A program made the translations under genes and the position numbers. 40,067 nt of DNA from an uncultured Candidatus Saccharibacteria bacterium (GTDB taxonomy: Bacteria; Patescibacteriota; Minisyncoccia; Phycocordibacterales; UBA2100). The DNA lies in the NCBI GenBank assembly GCA_964363895.1, contig CAYIJV010000004.1, positions 1 through 40,067 of the forward strand, in the 5' to 3' direction. The notes under the pieces were generated by a model that saw only the letters and a list, made by a program, of their open reading frames with translations, made no database searches and was not told the DNA's origin. Position 1 is the first letter of the stretch. The number at the start of each line of letters is the position of its first letter. Below are positions 4,295 through 15,708 of the stretch, piece after piece.

Positions 4295-4740
4295 AGTTTG
4301 TTTTGACTTTTTCATGCCGCTCTTTCTTGAAAGAAAGGGCGACACCGCACACAACACCCTTTCGACGAGGAGTCGCGCACGTTTTTGTGTCTTCTGCTAA
4401 ATGCTCAATTACTAACTGAACTAACTAACTGATAACTGAAGACCTACTGATAATCGGGCCTGACCCGCCGTCGGCGGATCTTGTGCCCATAACTTTGCTA
4501 GCCCCCTCCGTCAAAATGGCAGAAAGAGGATTAGCACCGAGAAGGAAATTTTCGTACAGACATGCAATCGTAACCGAAGAAGGAATTCCGAAATGTCTTC
4601 GAGTAAGACATCGACCTGCTTTACAGGTCGGCGATTGAATCGCTTTTTTGTATCTTATTTAAATGTCAACGAACTACACACAGAAAGCACAGCGCTCTCA
4701 TGCGTCTACCAACACCTCATACAAGAGATGTCGTAGAGCA

Positions 4741-4746
4741 ATTATA
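4741..4746 (-). promoter_or_regulatory. Candidate -10 box (TATAAT) for the surface-protein gene, implying a ~440-nt leader
   Basis: Perfect TATAAT on the minus strand, followed directly by a hairpin. No ORF of 60 aa or more lies between it and the gene. Confidence 0.45.
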
Positions 4747-4788
4747 TACTAGGGACCTTACCGAACGCGAATACAAGGCTCCCCGGTT

Positions 4789-4797
4789 TGTGGATAA
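4789..4797 (-). promoter_or_regulatory. DnaA box
   Basis: TGTGGATAA is the reverse complement of consensus TTATCCACA. It is intergenic. Confidence 0.5.
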
Positions 4798-5017
4798 CTT
4801 GTGAGCTAAGAAAGTCCTATAAAGACTTTTCTCACCCAGTCCATTACCGCGTGCAAGGATACCTCAGTACACAATGGGAGTCAATCAAAAGGCAGACTCG
4901 TAAAAACCCGCAAAGATCAGACCTTTGCGGATTGGAATTACTAAACCCATCTCCGTTTCAATAACCCAAAAGTCTCTTAAACTCGAAATTGAATCTGATC
5001 ATTTGAGACTTTATCTG

Positions 5018-5773
5018 CTATGCAATGGAATAGCGACTCCAGCGCTTCAAACCTGCCTTTTTCACACGTCCCGTAGCAACAAGAGCCATTAAGTCGCGCT
5101 GGATCATTTTTTCGCTATATTCTGGTAGGTTCGAGGCAATATCCCTGATACCGAGCTCACCGCCCGTCCTAAGAATCGCAATGATACTAAGCTCTCGGAC
5201 ACTTAACCCGTCACTATTGGTCATCTTCTCGGACATTCTAGTCCTGTCCTTTACATGTAACCTGTCCTTTGTAGCTATGTTGTCCTTTATGTCCTTTAAC
5301 GGTGACCCGTGAATGTCGAGAAGATCGTCGCGGGATAGAGAGATGCTTTCTGAAAGCGGAGAATTTCTCGAGACAGATAGAAAATTCCCCAATTCATCGA
5401 GTCCATCTATGACTATATTGGTGTTTTGAGTAGAGACAAATCCAGCAACAGGAAGCATCCGTACTAGCGAAATTAGATGCCGTATTGATACTCGGCAAGC
5501 ATCGACGTGGTCTGATCCAATTGCCCTCATATCGTCCCGTAAAGAGAGCATTCGTTCGAGAATTACGAGCGCTTCAGCCCGTAGAGATACTCGGAGCGAT
5601 TCTGTAGATGGAATGTGGTTGGTTATGAGGTACAGGGCCGCAACGATGCGTTCAGTCCTACGATATGCACGATCTGCCGATTGATTAGCCCCAAATGGGT
5701 TCGTCCGAACAACTTGACCATCAAAGAATTGAGATAGTTGGGTCGGATTCTGTTTGTCGTTTGGCATGTCCAT
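5018..5773 (-). CDS. DNA-binding protein with a helical N-terminal domain and C-terminal DeoR-like winged HTH
   Basis: C-terminus LGIRDIASNLPEYSEKMIQRDLMALVATGRVKKAGLKRWSRY matches the DeoR-type wHTH pattern (S-x-x-T/M-I-x-R-D-L). Confidence 0.75.
   Translation of the reverse strand: MDMPNDKQNPTQLSQFFDGQVVRTNPFGANQSADRAYRRTERIVAALYLITNHIPSTESLRVSLRAEALVILERMLSLRDDMRAIGSDHVDACRVSIRHLISLVRMLPVAGFVSTQNTNIVIDGLDELGNFLSVSRNSPLSESISLSRDDLLDIHGSPLKDIKDNIATKDRLHVKDRTRMSEKMTNSDGLSVRELSIIAILRTGGELGIRDIASNLPEYSEKMIQRDLMALVATGRVKKAGLKRWSRYSIA
5245..5297. repeat. Four phased TGTCCTTT direct repeats inside the wHTH gene
   Basis: Exact copies start at 5245, 5263, 5281 and 5290 (spacings 18, 18, 9). An inverted copy AAAGGACA lies at 5834-5841 in the upstream intergenic region. 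Confidence 0.85.
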
Positions 5774-5968
5774 TGTATGTCCCAGACCTGTACATTAAGA
5801 CACTCTGTACATGTCCGACATTGATGAGTATATAAAGGACATGTCTAATAAGCAACCCCGCCCCACTTTTATCTCCGACCATCGCAACTCGTGTTCGGGC
5901 ATACGGAAGAACTTATATTTCAAAAGAATCCGACCTGAAAGAGTGGGGCGGGATGATATGATGTCATC

Positions 5969-8209
5969 ATGAAATTGAAACGGAAACGCGGAAGAGACAA
6001 AGATATCGACGATGATAGTGGTTCAAGTGTCAGACACGTGAGTAGCGAGGCACTACGCGGGGTGTGCGCCATCTTTTTTGTCGCAATTGCCGGATTTCTC
6101 ATTCTTGCACAACTCGACGGGGGCGGAGCAATAGGCGCCACCCTTTATTCGTGGCTCTCGTGGCTTCTAGGTATCGGGTATTTTCTTTTACCCATCTCTC
6201 TCATTCTGCTCGCTCTCCTCATTTTTCGATCCTTTGAACGCAGCTTTGGCTGGGTACAGTTCTTAAGCATGACAGTCTTTCTGCTCGCTGGTTTAGGACT
6301 TATCAATCTCGTATTTCCGGGCCAAGGTGGAATTGTGGGAACGGGAGTATCAAATCCGATCGTTGCGGGCGTTGACATAACTGCGACTTTCATTTTTCTT
6401 ATCGCGTTCACTGTTGCATCGCTTGTTGTAGCATTCAATGTCCATCTCGGAGAGCTCCTTGCGAGCATCCGTGATTACTTCCTCTCTCTGCGCACTCTGA
6501 AAACAACTGAGGGAGTCGAAGCGCCCGTTATCGGATTGCCTACGGATGAAGAATCTCCCGAAACACCGGAACCAGAAGAATTGCGGGAGGACGTGGGATC
6601 TCCGCAAGACAAGCCGAAAGATACAAGTACAACCGGCTCTATTAAGAAATTCTTCATGGAGAGCGATGTGGCGACCGAGGGCTTCCCTATCATAGCGAGT
6701 ACTGGCAGCGCGTATATTCCACCGCCCGTTTCCATCCTTGCAAAAAATAGAGGCAAGCCTGAAGTAGGCGACGTGAAAGCAAACATGAATATCATCAAGC
6801 GCACTCTGCAAAATTTTGGGATACAGGTGGAAATGGATGAAGCTTCCATTGGCCCTACTGTAACGCGCTACTCGATGAAACCAGCCGAGGGTGTACGGCT
6901 CTCCAAAATAATCGCGCTTCAGAGTAATCTCGAGCTTGCACTCGCGGCTTCACCGGTGCGAATCGAGGCTCCCATACCTGGAAAATCCCTTGTGGGCATT
7001 GAGGTGCCGAATATAGCGCGAACAACGCTCGGCATGGCGCCCATCGTTTCTGACGAAACATTTACTCAATCAGATAAACCGCTTCTTCTCGGTCTTGGGC
7101 GCGCAATTACGGGTGCACCTATCTTCGCTGATCTTGCCCGCATGCCTCACATACTCGTCGCTGGTACAACGGGCGCAGGCAAATCAGTCGCTATCCACGA
7201 CTTTGTCGTTAGCCTTCTCTATCGATGCGGGCCCGAACGGCTACGCTTCATTATGATAGATCCAAAAAGAGTCGAGCTTACTGTATATAATTCCATCCCA
7301 CACCTCCTCACACCTGTGATTACCGACGCGAAAAAAGCTATCCTTGCCATAAAATGGCTAGCGAAAGAAATGGAACGCAGGTACAACATTTTGGAAACTG
7401 AAGCCGTGCGCGATATTTCTTCGTATCATCAGAATGTCGTTGCACCAGCACTGGAGAGGGTCTCGCGCAACGATATCGAAACGCCGCTACCAGAAGCTAT
7501 GCCGTATATCGTTGTAGTTATTGATGAGTTGGCCGATATCATGACAAGCTATCCTCGCGAACTTGAGAGTGGAATTGTACGGCTTGCACAAATGAGCCGC
7601 GCCGTAGGAATACACCTCATTCTCTCGACACAGCGACCGAGCGTGAAGGTTATTACAGGTCTCATCAAGGCCAATATACCCGCGCGAGTCGCCCTGCAGG
7701 TGGCCTCGCAAATCGATTCCCGAACTATTCTGGACACCGGCGGCGCAGAAAAACTCTTGGGAGCTGGCGACATGCTCTTTCTTTCGGGAGAAATGTCAAA
7801 ACCGCGCCGCATCCAAGCCCCATTTATTTCGGAAGATGAAGTAAAGCGAGTGGTTGCGCATATCATAAAGACAAGCGATGGAACACTCCCAAGCGAGATC
7901 GATTTCAGCGATCAGAAAACGGGAAGCGGAACTGATCCAATATTTTCTGCTTCGCTCGAAGACAGCGAGGATGACGCGCTATATGCAGAGGCAAAGCGCA
8001 CCGTCATAGAGGCCGGCAAGGCATCCACATCGTATTTGCAACGCAAACTCGGCGTAGGCTATGCTCGAGCGGCGCGTCTCATGGATATTCTCGAAGAGCG
8101 AGGCGTTATTGGTCCACCCGACGGGGCAAAGCCGCGCGACATCATTGGAGCAGGCAATGCTGATGAATTGGCGCGCGAGGAAAGTGGCAACGAGGAAGAA
8201 CGCGTATGA
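5969..8209 (+). CDS. ftsK: DNA translocase FtsK/SpoIIIE
   Basis: N-terminal TM region, Walker A AGTTGAGKS, MIDPKRVEL, Walker B VVIDELAD, TQRPS, and gamma domain ASTSYLQRKLGVGYARAARLMD. Confidence 0.97.
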   Translation: MKLKRKRGRDKDIDDDSGSSVRHVSSEALRGVCAIFFVAIAGFLILAQLDGGGAIGATLYSWLSWLLGIGYFLLPISLILLALLIFRSFERSFGWVQFLSMTVFLLAGLGLINLVFPGQGGIVGTGVSNPIVAGVDITATFIFLIAFTVASLVVAFNVHLGELLASIRDYFLSLRTLKTTEGVEAPVIGLPTDEESPETPEPEELREDVGSPQDKPKDTSTTGSIKKFFMESDVATEGFPIIASTGSAYIPPPVSILAKNRGKPEVGDVKANMNIIKRTLQNFGIQVEMDEASIGPTVTRYSMKPAEGVRLSKIIALQSNLELALAASPVRIEAPIPGKSLVGIEVPNIARTTLGMAPIVSDETFTQSDKPLLLGLGRAITGAPIFADLARMPHILVAGTTGAGKSVAIHDFVVSLLYRCGPERLRFIMIDPKRVELTVYNSIPHLLTPVITDAKKAILAIKWLAKEMERRYNILETEAVRDISSYHQNVVAPALERVSRNDIETPLPEAMPYIVVVIDELADIMTSYPRELESGIVRLAQMSRAVGIHLILSTQRPSVKVITGLIKANIPARVALQVASQIDSRTILDTGGAEKLLGAGDMLFLSGEMSKPRRIQAPFISEDEVKRVVAHIIKTSDGTLPSEIDFSDQKTGSGTDPIFSASLEDSEDDALYAEAKRTVIEAGKASTSYLQRKLGVGYARAARLMDILEERGVIGPPDGAKPRDIIGAGNADELAREESGNEEERV

Positions 8210-10093: not shown

Positions 10094-11791
10094 ATGCGCA
10101 CTATCAACCACCGTGCGATTCTCTTTTTCGGAATTGCGCTTATCCTCGTTTTCGCCGTTGCAACCCCGCTTTTTGCGCAGGAATCCACGATCACCTTCCC
10201 AATTGCCGATCTCGGCAATTGTGAATCCAAGAGCGCGTGTAAGACGTACTGCGATAACGCCACACATCATGATCAGTGCATCTCCTTTGCGGAGTCACAC
10301 GGCCTCATGAGCGCCGAAGAAGTGAAGATCGCCCGCGCAATCGGCAACGAAAAAGGACCAGGCGATTGCGTAGGATTTGAGTGCAAAGAATACTGTGACG
10401 CGGAGGAGCACATAGATGAATGCCTAGCATTTGCGGAGGAGCACGACATCATTCCACGTGAGGAAGTAGCTATTGCGAAAGAAGTGCGCACCAAGGGAGG
10501 TCCCGGGGGCTGCAAGAGCGAAAAGGAGTGTCGCGCGTATTGCGGCACCGATGGACACTTCGATGAGTGCATTGCGTTTGCCGAGAAGCACAATTTGATA
10601 TCGAAGGAAGAATTGAAGATAGCAAAGAAGATGGGCGACAAGCCGGGACCCGGTGGCTGCCGTCGCGAGGCATGCAAGACATACTGTGAAAATCCCGAAC
10701 ACATGAGCGAATGCGTTGATTTCGCAGTGCAAAGCGGCTTCATGACTGAAGAGGAAGCGACAATGGCAAGAAAAATGGGCAACAAAGAAGGCCCCGGAGG
10801 ATGTCGCGGGGAGGCATGTCGCACGTACTGCGAGACGCCCGAACACATGGAAGAGTGTCTTGCGTTTGCAGAAGAAAATGGGTTGATGTCGCGAGATGAG
10901 ATCGAACGCACGAAGAAATTCATGGGGAAACCCGGTCCGGGTGGGTGTATCGGTCAGCAATGCCGAACCTATTGCGAGGACCCCGCGCACCAGGATGCGT
11001 GTCTCTCGTTCGCGGAGGGAAACGGCATGATGTCACGCGAGGAAGCAGGGCACGCTCGAGAGTTTTCAAACAAGGAAGGCCCCGGAGGATGTCGCGGGGA
11101 AGCGTGCCGTACCTATTGCGGGGATCCGGCGCATATGGAGGCCTGCCGCGCATTTGCCGTCGAGAACGGATTCATAACGCAGGAAGATGCAGGTCGAATG
11201 AAAGAAATGCAAAACATAACAGGTCCTGGTGGGTGCAAGGGCGAGGAGTGCCGCACATACTGCGATGACCCCGCGAACATGGAGGCCTGTAGCACATTTG
11301 CCGAAGAGCACGGGTTCGGCGGACCGGACCATGAGGAGGGACTTGATCGAGCAATCGAGCGCCGCGGATTCGGTCCGCCAGCTGGCGGACCATCCGGAAA
11401 AATGCCCTGCGCATCGCCTGAAGAGTGCGAGCGAATGTACCGACAGAACCCTGATGATTTCAGAAAAAACATGGGAGAAGGGCCTCCGACCGGCGAAGAG
11501 CGAAGAGGCCGTACGAACGAATTCATGGGACGCCCCGATGAGAGCGGCAGCCCCACCAAACCGAAGCCCTATCAAGAAGGACTTCTGCAACCCGCGAGAG
11601 ATACGGGTCACATGCCGCCGGAATACCAAGGTCAGTATCAGCAAGAATATCAACGCCAATCCCAAGAGCAGTATAAAGAGCAATATCAGCAACAGATGCA
11701 ACAGACACAGCAGCAATATCAACAACAATCTCAACAGCCGCCGCCAAACGTGACTCCCCAAGAACAGCAGACGTATCAGCAGTACCCGTAA
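10094..11791 (+). CDS. Secreted Cys-rich repeat protein (GPGGC repeats) with a Gln-rich tail
   Basis: Signal peptide ending PLFA, then eight ~48-aa repeats, each with 4 Cys (GPGGC-x4-5-C-x-x-YC-x4-H-x3-C-x-x-FA), then a Pro/Gly-rich and Q/Y-rich C-terminus. Confidence 0.85.
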   Translation: MRTINHRAILFFGIALILVFAVATPLFAQESTITFPIADLGNCESKSACKTYCDNATHHDQCISFAESHGLMSAEEVKIARAIGNEKGPGDCVGFECKEYCDAEEHIDECLAFAEEHDIIPREEVAIAKEVRTKGGPGGCKSEKECRAYCGTDGHFDECIAFAEKHNLISKEELKIAKKMGDKPGPGGCRREACKTYCENPEHMSECVDFAVQSGFMTEEEATMARKMGNKEGPGGCRGEACRTYCETPEHMEECLAFAEENGLMSRDEIERTKKFMGKPGPGGCIGQQCRTYCEDPAHQDACLSFAEGNGMMSREEAGHAREFSNKEGPGGCRGEACRTYCGDPAHMEACRAFAVENGFITQEDAGRMKEMQNITGPGGCKGEECRTYCDDPANMEACSTFAEEHGFGGPDHEEGLDRAIERRGFGPPAGGPSGKMPCASPEECERMYRQNPDDFRKNMGEGPPTGEERRGRTNEFMGRPDESGSPTKPKPYQEGLLQPARDTGHMPPEYQGQYQQEYQRQSQEQYKEQYQQQMQQTQQQYQQQSQQPPPNVTPQEQQTYQQYP

Positions 11792-12418: not shown

Positions 12419-12814
12419 CTATCTAAAAAATCCCCGATACTGGGGATAATTATCACATACAAGCCCCTTCCACCAATCGGTTTCTCGCGAGCCTCGTACA
12501 TCGGTCTTGCAGTATACAAGAAGAATCCGCGCATCCGCAGTGTCTGCGTGCAGAGCTACTATGTATCTATTTCCCGAGCCACGGCGGGATTTTTCGGTTC
12601 CATGCACACGAAAATCCACTTTGAACACTTTAACCCTTTCACTATGTACTATAGTGGTTGCATTGGATTTCGCTATCAAAACATCGAAATTCTTGAACTC
12701 ATCCAGAAGGCCCTTCCACGTGACGTCCCACGCGCTCTTGTACTTCTTCGAGAAACTGCTTACAAAGTGACGCTCGGCAAAGGGCTCGAGGTGTGGCACA
12801 TACTCAATAGACAT
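12419..12814 (-). CDS. Putative RelE/HigB-like toxin
   Basis: 131 aa, basic, and overlaps the 3' end of the antitoxin gene by 11 nt. KVDFRV...KSRRGSGNRYIVAL...RILLVYCK resembles the RelE/HigB pattern (GKSGGxRVIY...LLxxYxK). Confidence 0.6.
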   Translation of the reverse strand: MSIEYVPHLEPFAERHFVSSFSKKYKSAWDVTWKGLLDEFKNFDVLIAKSNATTIVHSERVKVFKVDFRVHGTEKSRRGSGNRYIVALHADTADARILLVYCKTDVRGSRETDWWKGLVCDNYPQYRGFFR

Positions 12815-13487
12815 TGTTGGGGTCTTCCTGAATGATAAGTTCGTACGGGATTAATTCGTTCTCGGCACAAATTTGGTATGGTAATTGCTCGTGAGTAAAG
12901 TCGACAATTTCCTGCGTTCGCTTTCCGCGCCATTTCGTCGCAACATCCGAAATGAGTTTCTGCTCTTCCGCAGATAGTAGGTCGAGGGGTGCATTTGGCG
13001 CGCTGCCCGCTTGCGAAATTAAAAGGGCTTCATCTTTTTTCTCAATATCAATTTTCCCGCTTTCGAAAAGCTCATCAAGTGCACGAAAATAGAGATCCGG
13101 CACTGGGCCGTATTGTATGCGACGATACTGCATATCGCTCATACTTTGCAAATTGCGATAGAACCACGCAAAATCGGCTAGGTAGAGTAATTTTGCTAAT
13201 TTGGTCTTTGGCACTTTACCGCGAGAGTCCGCCCCAACGCGTAGGAACGCTAATACCATCTGCTTGTATTTCTCATAGTTTGGCGTGACTGTGCTCGAAA
13301 GCTCCTCAAGAGTTATCCCAAAAAGTTGCACGAATCGGTGTGCTTCCTCCAAACTCAATTCACGAGATCCATTTTCAACGGCAATATAGGACGATCGTGC
13401 GATACCTAGCTTCTCAGCCAAAAAGGCCTGAGAAAAAGTGTGTTTCCTACGTAACGACTTAATAAATGGGCCTAATTTGTTGGTCAT
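12804..13487 (-). CDS. XRE-HTH plus Panacea (DUF4065/SocA/GepA) antitoxin
   Basis: N-terminal Cro/C1 HTH (IKSLRRKHTFSQAFLAEKLGIARSSYIAVENG) and Panacea motifs KLAKLLYLADF, YGPVP and DFTHEQLPY. Confidence 0.85.
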   Translation of the reverse strand: MTNKLGPFIKSLRRKHTFSQAFLAEKLGIARSSYIAVENGSRELSLEEAHRFVQLFGITLEELSSTVTPNYEKYKQMVLAFLRVGADSRGKVPKTKLAKLLYLADFAWFYRNLQSMSDMQYRRIQYGPVPDLYFRALDELFESGKIDIEKKDEALLISQAGSAPNAPLDLLSAEEQKLISDVATKWRGKRTQEIVDFTHEQLPYQICAENELIPYELIIQEDPNNVY

Positions 13488-13701: not shown

Positions 13702-15708
13702 TTATTCACCGTCCGGCTCAACAACTTCTTGTACAACGCCCTGCACGCTATCGCCCTCCTCTGGTGTTATCGGCATGTGATTCTTGTTACTACTTTTGGG
13801 CAATAAGATTCTACGACCGTCTTTTTTGTCATACATTTTGATTGTCACATTATCGCCTAGTAGGGCGACAACCCTATCGCCCGTGTCTGCCTTTAGTTGC
13901 TGACGACATAAAACGAGATCGCCGTTATTGATGCCTGCAAGGTTCATAGAATCACCTTCTGCTCTGAGAATAAAGTATTTATAACCTGATTTTATCTTTG
14001 ATTTTTCAACCAATACATGGTCCTCAATGTTTTCTTGTCCGAACAAAGGACTGCCGCACGGGGCTGATCCTACAAGAGGTATCCTGATCATGTCCAACGT
14101 AATTGGAGATTTAACGAGTCCACTGTAATTCATCCTCATGCTCACCCCCATTCTCGACTTGAAGTACCTCTCTGTTTCTTTGTCCACAAAATACACATAG
14201 CACCCTCGCATGCCCCGGGTCATAAGCGTCTTGTAGATATTGATGATGTATCTCTCTAATTCGGCAGGATCTGTAATTCCCCTCCACCCGTTTCTATCCT
14301 CGTACTTGTCACCATTTACTACGAGTCGATCCGCTGTGGCATCGTATGCCAACTCGGGACCTACTATGACGCCCACATAATTTAAGTCATATCCTTGTAC
14401 TGTGTGAATGCAACCGACCTCGTTTATCGCGTTGGGCGAGTTGACCCAGTCAGTCGTAGTGCTATTCCATCTCAATTTGAGCCCATTGATATCGATGTCA
14501 GTTGCATCGGGACTCCCCCTACTAATCCACGGCCATGCAAATCCCGCCACAATCCGACTTAGACTGAATTTTCTGTTTTTGATTTTAATATCTGCAACCA
14601 TCTCTGTAGCGTCGTCATAGATTTGGAAATCGAAGTCATGGAACTTCGAATCAAGAGCCTTTTGTCCCTTAAATATATTATTGATAAACGCAATATACTT
14701 TTCTCCACCTTTCACTCGAAGCTGGCTCGTTAGGAAGTGGTGTACTGCTACAAGATTCTTGAATCGCGCGACGTGAACATCGGCGGGTCTAATGCTTTGA
14801 TTTTCATCGTAAAAGAGAATCTGCTGCTTTGAGCACTTGAGAACCCAATCCAGCTCCGTACCGTCCTGCCCGAACTCTAGTCGCTTGTTCATCGCGTCAT
14901 GGCTTCTATAATTTGTGATATTCCGACGCTGCCTTAGCCGATGTGCTTCATCAACAATCAGCAGGTCGTATTTTTTGTCTGCGACTTCGCTTGGTCCTAT
15001 AACCATGCTCTCCGAGAGCCCAGACACGCGTGAAAATGCGTCCTTAATTGATCTGCGCAACGGCGTCATTGATATAACCAGTCCGACTGAAAGATCTTTT
15101 GTCTCATCGTCTTCTTTGAGCAACTTAACCAGATATGTCGCTAAAATAGTTTTGCCTGTGCCGGGGCCACCATTCACAATATGCGTACTTGCCTGACCTG
15201 TTCTAACAGCATGGTACAGTTCATCAGCCACTGCCATCTGATCCTCTGTAAGTGCCTTATATGGGGAATACTTAAACAATTCGCTGTTCTCGATGTCCTT
15301 TAAATCACGCTTCACTAGCGCTAGCTCTTGAAGTTTTTTCCAGATTGTTTCCAGTTTTGCGCGATATCGGTCCCTGTCAAAGTAATTGTGGTTCACCAAC
15401 CCCTTATTGCCATTTTGTAGGCGGAGGGTTCCTTCTGCAGAAAAATACTGAATTAGTTGCGACTCGAGGTCGAGTGTGGCTGATTTGTTATATTCCTCAT
15501 CCGTTATGACATGCAGTGTTTTCAAGCGAGCCCGATCCTCATTTTCGTAGTGTTGTCTGCTTCGATTATGCGCGCTGGTTGTTTCACCTATATATACCTC
15601 GCGTCCGTTTTCTATTATGTAGACCACTGGCCAATCTCGCCCAAGTGGAAATCTTTTAATACCTTCAAAGCCCACCTTATCGAACGCAAATGTTTCGATG
15701 TTGGACAT
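13702..15708 (-). CDS. GIY-YIG nuclease / DUF2075 (Schlafen group-3-type SF1 helicase) / LexA-like S24 peptidase fusion
   Basis: N-terminal VVYII...VYIGET...R. Helicase motifs GGPGTGKT, IVDEAH, CIHTVQGYDL and LMTRG. C-terminal IPLVGSAPCGSP...GDSM...GDLV...VTIK is an S24 domain. Confidence 0.88.
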   Translation of the reverse strand: MSNIETFAFDKVGFEGIKRFPLGRDWPVVYIIENGREVYIGETTSAHNRSRQHYENEDRARLKTLHVITDEEYNKSATLDLESQLIQYFSAEGTLRLQNGNKGLVNHNYFDRDRYRAKLETIWKKLQELALVKRDLKDIENSELFKYSPYKALTEDQMAVADELYHAVRTGQASTHIVNGGPGTGKTILATYLVKLLKEDDETKDLSVGLVISMTPLRRSIKDAFSRVSGLSESMVIGPSEVADKKYDLLIVDEAHRLRQRRNITNYRSHDAMNKRLEFGQDGTELDWVLKCSKQQILFYDENQSIRPADVHVARFKNLVAVHHFLTSQLRVKGGEKYIAFINNIFKGQKALDSKFHDFDFQIYDDATEMVADIKIKNRKFSLSRIVAGFAWPWISRGSPDATDIDINGLKLRWNSTTTDWVNSPNAINEVGCIHTVQGYDLNYVGVIVGPELAYDATADRLVVNGDKYEDRNGWRGITDPAELERYIINIYKTLMTRGMRGCYVYFVDKETERYFKSRMGVSMRMNYSGLVKSPITLDMIRIPLVGSAPCGSPLFGQENIEDHVLVEKSKIKSGYKYFILRAEGDSMNLAGINNGDLVLCRQQLKADTGDRVVALLGDNVTIKMYDKKDGRRILLPKSSNKNHMPITPEEGDSVQGVVQEVVEPDGE

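Follow-up and report, generated by a model that had tools for sequence, protein, structure and literature searches.

A Winged-Helix Protein Gene beside ftsK with Conserved 9-bp Boxes in Its Linker-Coding DNA: A Probable Autorepressor in Candidate-Phyla Bacteria

Introduction

A single-copy gene lying divergently beside ftsK in an uncultured Candidatus Saccharibacteria bacterium encodes a predicted protein of 251 aa, comprising a four-helix bundle, a linker and a winged helix, and homologous sequences strongly support the conclusion that the repeats in its linker-coding DNA are real and selected as DNA. The repeated word, a 9-bp box, is likely to be the binding site of the gene's own product. 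The best explanation, to which we assign a probability of roughly 60%, is that this product acts as an oligomeric autorepressor with operators inside its own gene, and also acts with DnaA at an origin-proximal island. The observations behind this reading are DNA-level selection, the positional overlap of a box with the promoter, synteny with ftsK, and the occurrence of composites of box and DnaA box at two places in a parS-like island.

Gene regulation and cell-cycle timing are almost unknown in candidate-phyla bacteria, few of which are cultivable. The gene would provide these organisms with a class-wide single-copy regulator for which a likely site, likely targets and a link to DnaA and parS can be named. 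Three further points of interest are an unusually clear example of DNA sites that appear to dictate the sequence of a protein linker throughout an order, a novel role for the Avd/IVS fold, and a lead to a structured RNA missing from the catalogues. The underlying logic has precedents, in auxiliary operators placed within coding sequences and in the repeats of lambda O. A search of literature listings and abstracts, in which few subscription journals were represented, yielded nothing on this family or its site, nor on the pairing of the two domains, the rewriting of the linker throughout the order or the composites of box and DnaA box; motif and RNA tables for the CPR could still lie in supplementary files.

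The Gene and the Predicted Fold of Its Product

Positions given without a contig refer to the window, that is, the whole analysed stretch of 40,067 nucleotides. The gene occupies 5018..5773 on the minus strand and is present once in the genome. An AlphaFold2 model built on 114 sequences (mean pLDDT 88) predicts helices at residues 31–135, a low-confidence linker region at residues 164–179 and a winged helix at residues 188–251. On the minus strand, the predicted four-helix bundle corresponds to 5369..5683, the linker (residues 153–191), whose DNA bears the boxes, to 5201..5317, and the predicted winged helix-turn-helix, with the recognition helix SEKMIQRDL, to 5021..5212. The prediction is thus of an Avd/IVS-like four-helix bundle followed by a disordered linker and a winged helix. 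The bundle resembles Avd, Xcc0516 and BT_0352 in fold; its best structural matches are 8UB7, 4DWL, 2GSC and 2RLD, with Z scores of 13.9–14.3 and rmsd of 2.1–3.6 over 105–116 aligned residues, values to be read with the fact that helical bundles can reach Z ~13 by their common arrangement. The best Foldseek E-value for the bundle is 4.7e-3.

Sequence families capture the protein poorly. The query has no Pfam family at E 0.01; PF22296 matches 3 of the 114 family members, and PF08220 (HTH_DeoR) matches weakly, with 36 of 114 members at E <= 0.01 (best 1.4e-5) and the query itself not among them. A sequence search for solved relatives returned one weak match (E 0.32). No ParB family is found among the matches of the 114 members, and no initiator among the listed fold matches. 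Membership of the DeoR family was rejected, as the HTH is C-terminal here and the other domain is a four-helix bundle in place of a sugar-phosphate sensor. ParB/parS membership was likewise rejected: a separate ParB gene lies on contig C23, and the box is a non-palindromic 9-mer with no 16-bp palindrome. Nor is the setting that of a diversity-generating (DGR) cassette or an rRNA intervening sequence, for no reverse transcriptase was found among the 32 window proteins scanned, no rRNA gene lies in the window, and the neighbours are ftsK and a surface-protein gene. The protein stands outside the DeoR, Avd, Rep, ParB and Rok families, each of which failed on a defining feature. The gene is found in 38 of 41 related genomes; its nearest relatives are assigned to Kaiserbacteria and Paceibacterota, and homologue clusters in the Atlas are mostly from Minisyncoccota.

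Several other genes of the window were recorded in passing. At 12419–13487 (minus strand), a gene with HTH_3 and SocA/Panacea antitoxin domains is followed by a 131-aa ORF without a Pfam match, and the pair is likely, from its domains, to be a toxin–antitoxin system. A fusion of GIY-YIG, Schlafen-group-3 helicase and S24 peptidase at 13702–15708 (minus strand) contains a lone strict box at 15294, and a 565-aa ORF without a Pfam match lies between recA and efp at 10094–11791 (plus strand).

Box Repeats at the Locus

The repeats were first described in an earlier note on this DNA, every coordinate of which proved correct when re-checked on the sequence. The octamer TGTCCTTT occurs at 5245, 5263, 5281 and 5290, within the linker of the gene; its inverted form, AAAGGACA, lies at 5834 in non-coding DNA, inside what is here called the promoter box. 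In addition, ATGTCCGA is found at 5811 in the leader and TCGGACAT at 5229 at the end of the linker. All four Lys-Asp pairs of the linker array share codons and flanks (A-AAG-GAC-A), as the note had stated. The repeat unit itself is here corrected from the octamer to a non-palindromic 9-mer with a GGACA core. In this form, the locus contains four direct boxes in the linker (5245..5298, minus strand, with 9-mers at 5245, 5263, 5281 and 5290, the gene strand reading TAAAGGACA or CAAAGGACA), two oppositely oriented boxes where the linker ends (5193..5235, plus strand, GGACA cores at 5197 and 5231), the promoter box (5833..5841, plus strand), and three weaker ones, lying in the leader and across the start codon (5767..5820, minus strand, at 5812, 5778 and 5767). 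The additional ATGTC half-sites at 5766, 5777 and 5841 carry no weight as a bare word, which is common (62 on the plus strand of the window); they count only because they extend to box-like 9-mers. The description of the repeats as phased holds for a 9- or 18-base spacing, seen in 87 of 149 same-orientation neighbours in homologous linkers, and fails for helical phasing.

The array exceeds chance: the octamer has 24 occurrences on both strands of the whole 662,363-base genome, and four copies within 54 bases were reached in none of 20,000 synonymous redraws of the query linker peptide. A position-weight scan of the genome returned three clusters of at least three boxes: the linker, the promoter and leader, and positions 1909–1966 of contig C8.

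Selection on the Linker DNA across Homologues

From 99 loci, 84 distinct homologous genes were kept, most of them from one family and hence not independent. With the strict box defined as the 9-mer TA(A/T)(A/C)GGACA, their linkers contain 169 copies, against 7.4 +/- 2.8 and 9.9 +/- 3.0 in two runs of synonymous redrawing. By the same procedure, the N-terminal tail contains 11 copies (1.0 expected), the winged helix 15 (3.1 expected) and the bundle 2 (0.7 expected). Codon choice follows the same pattern: Lys-Asp is encoded as AAG GAC in 156 of 191 instances in the linkers, the corresponding figures being 19 of 54 for the winged helix and 74 of 486 for the long ORFs of the query genome. The strict box is present in 72 of the 84 linkers and absent from 12. 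At 35 of the 84 loci a copy occupies a different frame or the opposite strand and is there translated as KGH, KGQ, MSD or VSD, and the linker peptides vary widely among the homologues. The proposal that the linker is shaped by selection on the DNA is thus borne out by an excess of the 9-mer over peptide expectation in several frames and on both strands; when homologues are compared at the nucleotide level, codons do not vary freely and the upstream copies are conserved, contrary to the outcome that the earlier note had named as a refutation.

The Promoter of the Gene and Its Neighbours

The predicted promoter of the gene (5827..5855, minus strand) consists of TTGCTT (5855–5850), a spacer of 17 bases and TATACT (5832–5827), and the promoter box occupies the last 9 spacer bases before the predicted -10. 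With a score of only 8/12, this promoter is missed by a simple consensus scan. Among homologues, a box-like 9-mer directly precedes a -10-like hexamer at 61 of 83 loci, ~45–75 bases (once 118) before the start; TTG at a 17-base spacer occurs in 35 of these 61, and is one base off in most others. This box over the gene's own promoter makes the autoregulatory loop, one of the possibilities raised in the earlier note, the best reading of the sequence.

The divergent ftsK (5969..8209, plus strand) has a promoter-like site at 5935–5962, ~95 bases from the promoter box. Synteny with ftsK, also suggested for checking, is complete: wherever the flank was long enough, at 80 of 80 loci, ftsK is divergent. 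The box as a regulator of ftsK was rejected, as the promoter-like site of ftsK overlaps no box in the window; ftsK leaders start with GTC after the -10 in 15 of 53 cases, which is too weak to call.

On the other side, TGTGGATAA, a DnaA box at 4789..4797 (minus strand), lies 42 bases before the -10 (4746–4741) of the downstream surface-protein gene. It is conserved at 75 of 84 loci, always in the same orientation, and stands 41–43 bases from the -10 of the downstream gene at 73 of 80 loci. Since this distance is fixed, the DnaA box belongs to that promoter and not to the box array. Some features of this region are recorded separately. The gene for the surface protein, of 1135 aa, is preceded at 4741–4884 (minus strand) and at homologous loci by tandem promoter-like sites, the second of which has its -10 42 bases beyond the DnaA box, and by a long leader with a boxA-like word, a pattern seen at 69 of 80 loci. 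Imperfect units of 4–7 bases (ACTAACTG-like) occur in the same leader at 4410–4452, and similar runs are seen after the gene at locus L257 and before it at L066 and L091. Elsewhere in the genome, perfect DnaA boxes precede genes identified by eye as a pilin-like gene, mraZ and secA.

Homologues Outside the Order

A first profile matched 52 of 301 genomes of the phylum; among the 35 loci examined, boxes were abundant at the 12 with ftsK but not at most of the other 23. A second profile, applied to the class, picked up 126 of 251 genomes; nine of these loci, all outside the order, were examined. In six of them, GGACA arrays lie in the DNA for the C-terminal tail or immediately behind the stop codon, often accompanied by a DnaA-like box. 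In the remaining three, the recognition helix has lost the [QR]R pair and another repeat is present, within the gene or immediately behind it: five copies of TATCGGCAA spaced 11 bases apart beyond the stop codon (L352), TGACA (L272), and four copies of TTCCGG(A/T)A within the gene (L271). This covariation of helix and repeat, seen at three loci, suggests that the protein binds its own gene. Two unlike recognition helices, SEKMIQREL and TKRTLRRDL, share the GGACA core. At several loci of other orders (L278, L348–L351, L270 and L272) the homologue directly precedes an ORF judged by eye to be ECF-sigma-like, with the box array in between. A full-length homologue with ftsK and boxes (L257, on contig C96 of genome G393) comes from a 2.1-Mb, 150-contig genome that is placed outside the class and may be a mixed bin.

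Composites of Box and DnaA Box near xer and xth

The third cluster, C8 1909–1966, lies behind xth and the only integrase-family gene of the query genome, and takes the form of a composite in which a box is followed, after 3–4 bases, by a DnaA box. Of 301 genomes of the order, 93 contain this composite, almost invariably in a single copy, against 3 for a reversed-pattern control; outside the order it is at background level (7 genomes versus 11 for controls, among 301). The strict pattern misses variants, for instance in genomes G034 and G040. In 39 of 43 composites examined, the next gene is cca, xth or xer. Read on the other strand, the composite consists of a DnaA box, a box over a -35-like hexamer, a box in the spacer and, in 41 of the 43, a TAnnnT hexamer 30–33 bases beyond the DnaA box. 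No conserved small ORF was found behind the composite at the 43 loci. By a crude rule, a terminator follows in 21 of 43, mostly 190–330 bases on, and the intervening RNA bodies fold better than shuffled sequences (median z -2.4; 12 of 21 below -2). Four copies from the genus have a rod in common, 13 of whose 36 pairs show two-sided changes; a model built from them recovers a fifth copy at 135 bits and, in other families, weak matches only, in the right place. No Rfam family fits the RNA, and the 6S RNA model RF00013 gives no match in the query genome at E 1, a model that detects only 5 of 14 control genomes. In the query genome (G000, locus L101), the predicted structured non-coding RNA lies at C8 1669–1890 (minus strand) as a long interrupted rod with a terminator, has no Rfam match, and contains GTTCTTT in many copies.

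Measured from dnaA, the composite stands at 24–40 kb in 13 genomes out of 14 and at 80 kb in the remaining one. Counted with the parS consensus, 54 parS-like 16-mers fall within 6 kb of the composite (162 kb in all) and 7 in the other 1.97 Mb, the concentration being found in 13 of 14 genomes, and this region, 24–40 kb from dnaA, is a candidate for the centromere of the order. Parts of it were also seen individually, with parS-like palindromes in and around yraN and cca at ~187 kb of contig C3 in G008, at ~94.5 kb of C2 in G040, at 166–171 kb of C5 in G138, and in others. In 13 of the 14 genomes, a yraN-like gene is located 0.8–7.2 kb from the composite; a DnaA box stands upstream of this gene in 11, and boxes adjoin it in 11. 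Near this gene a second composite is found, in which tandem DnaA-like boxes with a period of ~11 bases end in a box; its 11 hits, in 10 of 14 genomes, all lie within 8 kb. A further 42 strict boxes occur within 6 kb of the composite, and boxes are also present inside the cca coding sequence and downstream of yraN with no evident promoter. The spacing of boxes is 11–12 bases in several non-coding arrays, as against 9 and 18 in linkers. A loose inverted-box pattern did not exceed its control. In the query genome, where the composite is 1.9 kb from a contig end, no parS-like site lies beside it and yraN has no match. The composite was also considered as a dif site and rejected, there being no Xer-type inverted arms around a spacer by eye and its position being origin-proximal. 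The suggested role in replication or segregation gains support not from the array at the gene but from the DnaA-plus-box composites in the parS-like island near xer.

A Probable Autorepressor and the Competing Explanations

Under the autorepressor reading, the winged-helix heads of an oligomer would bind the 9-bp boxes in the promoter spacer, the leader and the linker-coding DNA. By analogy with the solved look-alike Xcc0516, built of five bundles according to the title of a reference cited in PMC10053308, the four-helix bundles may assemble into a ring; a ring of bundles on flexible linkers would allow several heads to hold several variably spaced and variably oriented boxes at once. Occupancy of the promoter box would shut the gene off and fix the level of the protein, with the linker array, ~550 bases downstream, presumably serving as an auxiliary operator through a loop or a roadblock. 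Within the gene, probably only the linker is under little enough constraint to have been turned into operators. As its outward job, the protein would cover the -35 and spacer of the DnaA-box promoter that appears to drive the structured RNA of 190–330 bases, and would flank the second DnaA-box array before the yraN-like gene, so that its sites would be tied to the replication cycle. Against this reading stand the 8/12 score of its own promoter, a linker spacing that is not one helical turn, the 12 of 84 linkers without a strict box, a covariation seen at three loci only with two unlike helices sharing the GGACA core, and a query composite without an adjoining parS-like site or yraN. A more ambitious version, speculative and on balance unlikely to hold as a whole, is a minimal cell-cycle circuit of the ultra-small Paceibacteria in which a domesticated Avd/IVS-type pentamer with five winged-helix heads, dosed by its linker operators, would grip the centromere island together with DnaA, gate a DnaA-driven structured RNA (a divergent 6S RNA or a ligand of the Avd-like ring), and couple replication initiation to segregation beside Xer and FtsK.

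The strongest rival, itself unlikely, accepts that the protein binds the box, and holds that its main job is structural or replicative: it would bridge arrays in the parS-like island or license DnaA assembly, as IHF does at datA/DARS, while the arrays in its own gene would only set the dose. The parS-like clustering (54 versus 7), the second composite in 10 of 14 genomes and the neighbours, namely ftsK at 80 of 80 loci and the query genome's only integrase-family gene at the composite, speak for it; the boxes in cca and past yraN, together with the 42 extra ones, fit it as well as they fit the autorepressor. However, the main composite shows promoter geometry in 41 of 43 cases and has a terminator-ended structured stretch behind it, and control of transcription is suggested by the sigma-factor-like ORF that follows the arrays in other orders.

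Rather improbable is the view that another protein reads the box, such as the sigma-factor-like neighbour of other orders, a DnaA partner, Xer or ParB, and that the linker merely hosts its control sites. The occurrence of one core with two unlike recognition helices would suit such a reader, but the arrays track the gene through different neighbourhoods and change with the helix at three loci, and two of the three clusters in the genome lie in the gene and its promoter.

Very improbable is the idea that the gene, in the manner of lambda O, encodes an iteron-type initiator and carries its origin within the coding DNA, or that the array acts as a centromere. Lambda O and the rep genes of iteron plasmids have direct repeats in the interdomain linker and an operator over their own promoter, a layout that the linker repeats and promoter operator match, and a DnaA box lies ~450 bases away; that DnaA box is, however, locked to the next promoter, and a separate ParB is encoded. 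This possibility, put forward in the earlier note, is not upheld, with oriC placed at dnaA–dnaN on another contig: in the query genome, dnaA lies on contig C24 with the skew minimum adjoining. Among 14 long stretches, six chosen for few contigs and eight for carrying the composite, the GC-skew break after strand correction falls within ~5 kb of dnaA in eight, and an oriC at the gene or at the composite was rejected as a rule. In G002 and G040, where the gene is on the stretch, the break is at dnaA and not at the gene (G008 being uninformative). The raw skew turned at the composite in G025 and G029 before coding-strand correction; the corrected break is nearer the composite in G250 and weakly so in G138, G113 allows both positions, dnaA is at the stretch edge in G216, and G008 and G029 give nothing usable. 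DnaA-trio-like runs, identified by eye with the motif as given in PMC8287927, follow dnaA before the next gene in several genomes.

Finally, it is scarcely credible, and from the sequences already largely refuted, that the repeats reflect slippage, selection for the Lys-Asp peptide, an RNA-level effect (Shine-Dalgarno-like pausing) or relics of arrays bracketing IVS-type four-helix genes: in-frame duplication would give the 9- and 18-base spacing, but the same DNA word arises from unrelated linker peptides, in different frames and on the opposite strand, the copy in the promoter precedes the predicted start of transcription, and composites distant from any four-helix gene keep the same word.

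Comparison with Known Systems

The protein shares a predicted four-helix fold, at residues 20–142, with Avd (4DWL/8UB7) and the proteins of 23S rRNA intervening sequences (Xcc0516, 2GSC; BT_0352, 2RLD), but differs from them in its fusion to a winged helix, its single copy and its fixed place next to ftsK. With lambda O and the Rep genes of iteron plasmids it has in common the direct repeats in linker-coding DNA and an operator over its own promoter; in contrast to these, it is chromosomal and syntenic with ftsK, has no origin signature at the gene, and finds no initiator among its listed fold matches. Rok of Bacillus subtilis is described in PMC11841835 as a repressor that bridges DNA, is found together with DnaA at some of its sites and may act via short loops. 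It prefers AT-rich DNA, and brings DnaA to regions without DnaA boxes. Here, if the box is the site of the protein, a specific 9-mer is concentrated in three clusters and stands 3–4 bases from true DnaA boxes, and the listed family and fold hits include no Rok match.

The loci datA and DARS are DnaA-box arrays away from oriC that work with an architectural protein. The composites resemble them in having tandem DnaA boxes away from oriC with adjoining sites for a second protein, and differ in their location in a parS-like island, their association with a predicted RNA promoter, and a partner other than IHF or Fis. The looping repressors (LacI with O2, GalR with OI, DeoR and GlpR) use auxiliary operators inside coding DNA, and come close in plan, with what is here a predicted oligomeric regulator, a promoter operator and intragenic operators hundreds of bases downstream. 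Unlike in these systems, the winged helix stands at the C-terminus, a sugar-binding domain is absent, and an Avd-like bundle is the predicted oligomerisation module; moreover, the putative auxiliary sites lie in the regulator's own gene, where they dictate the peptide of its linker across the order.
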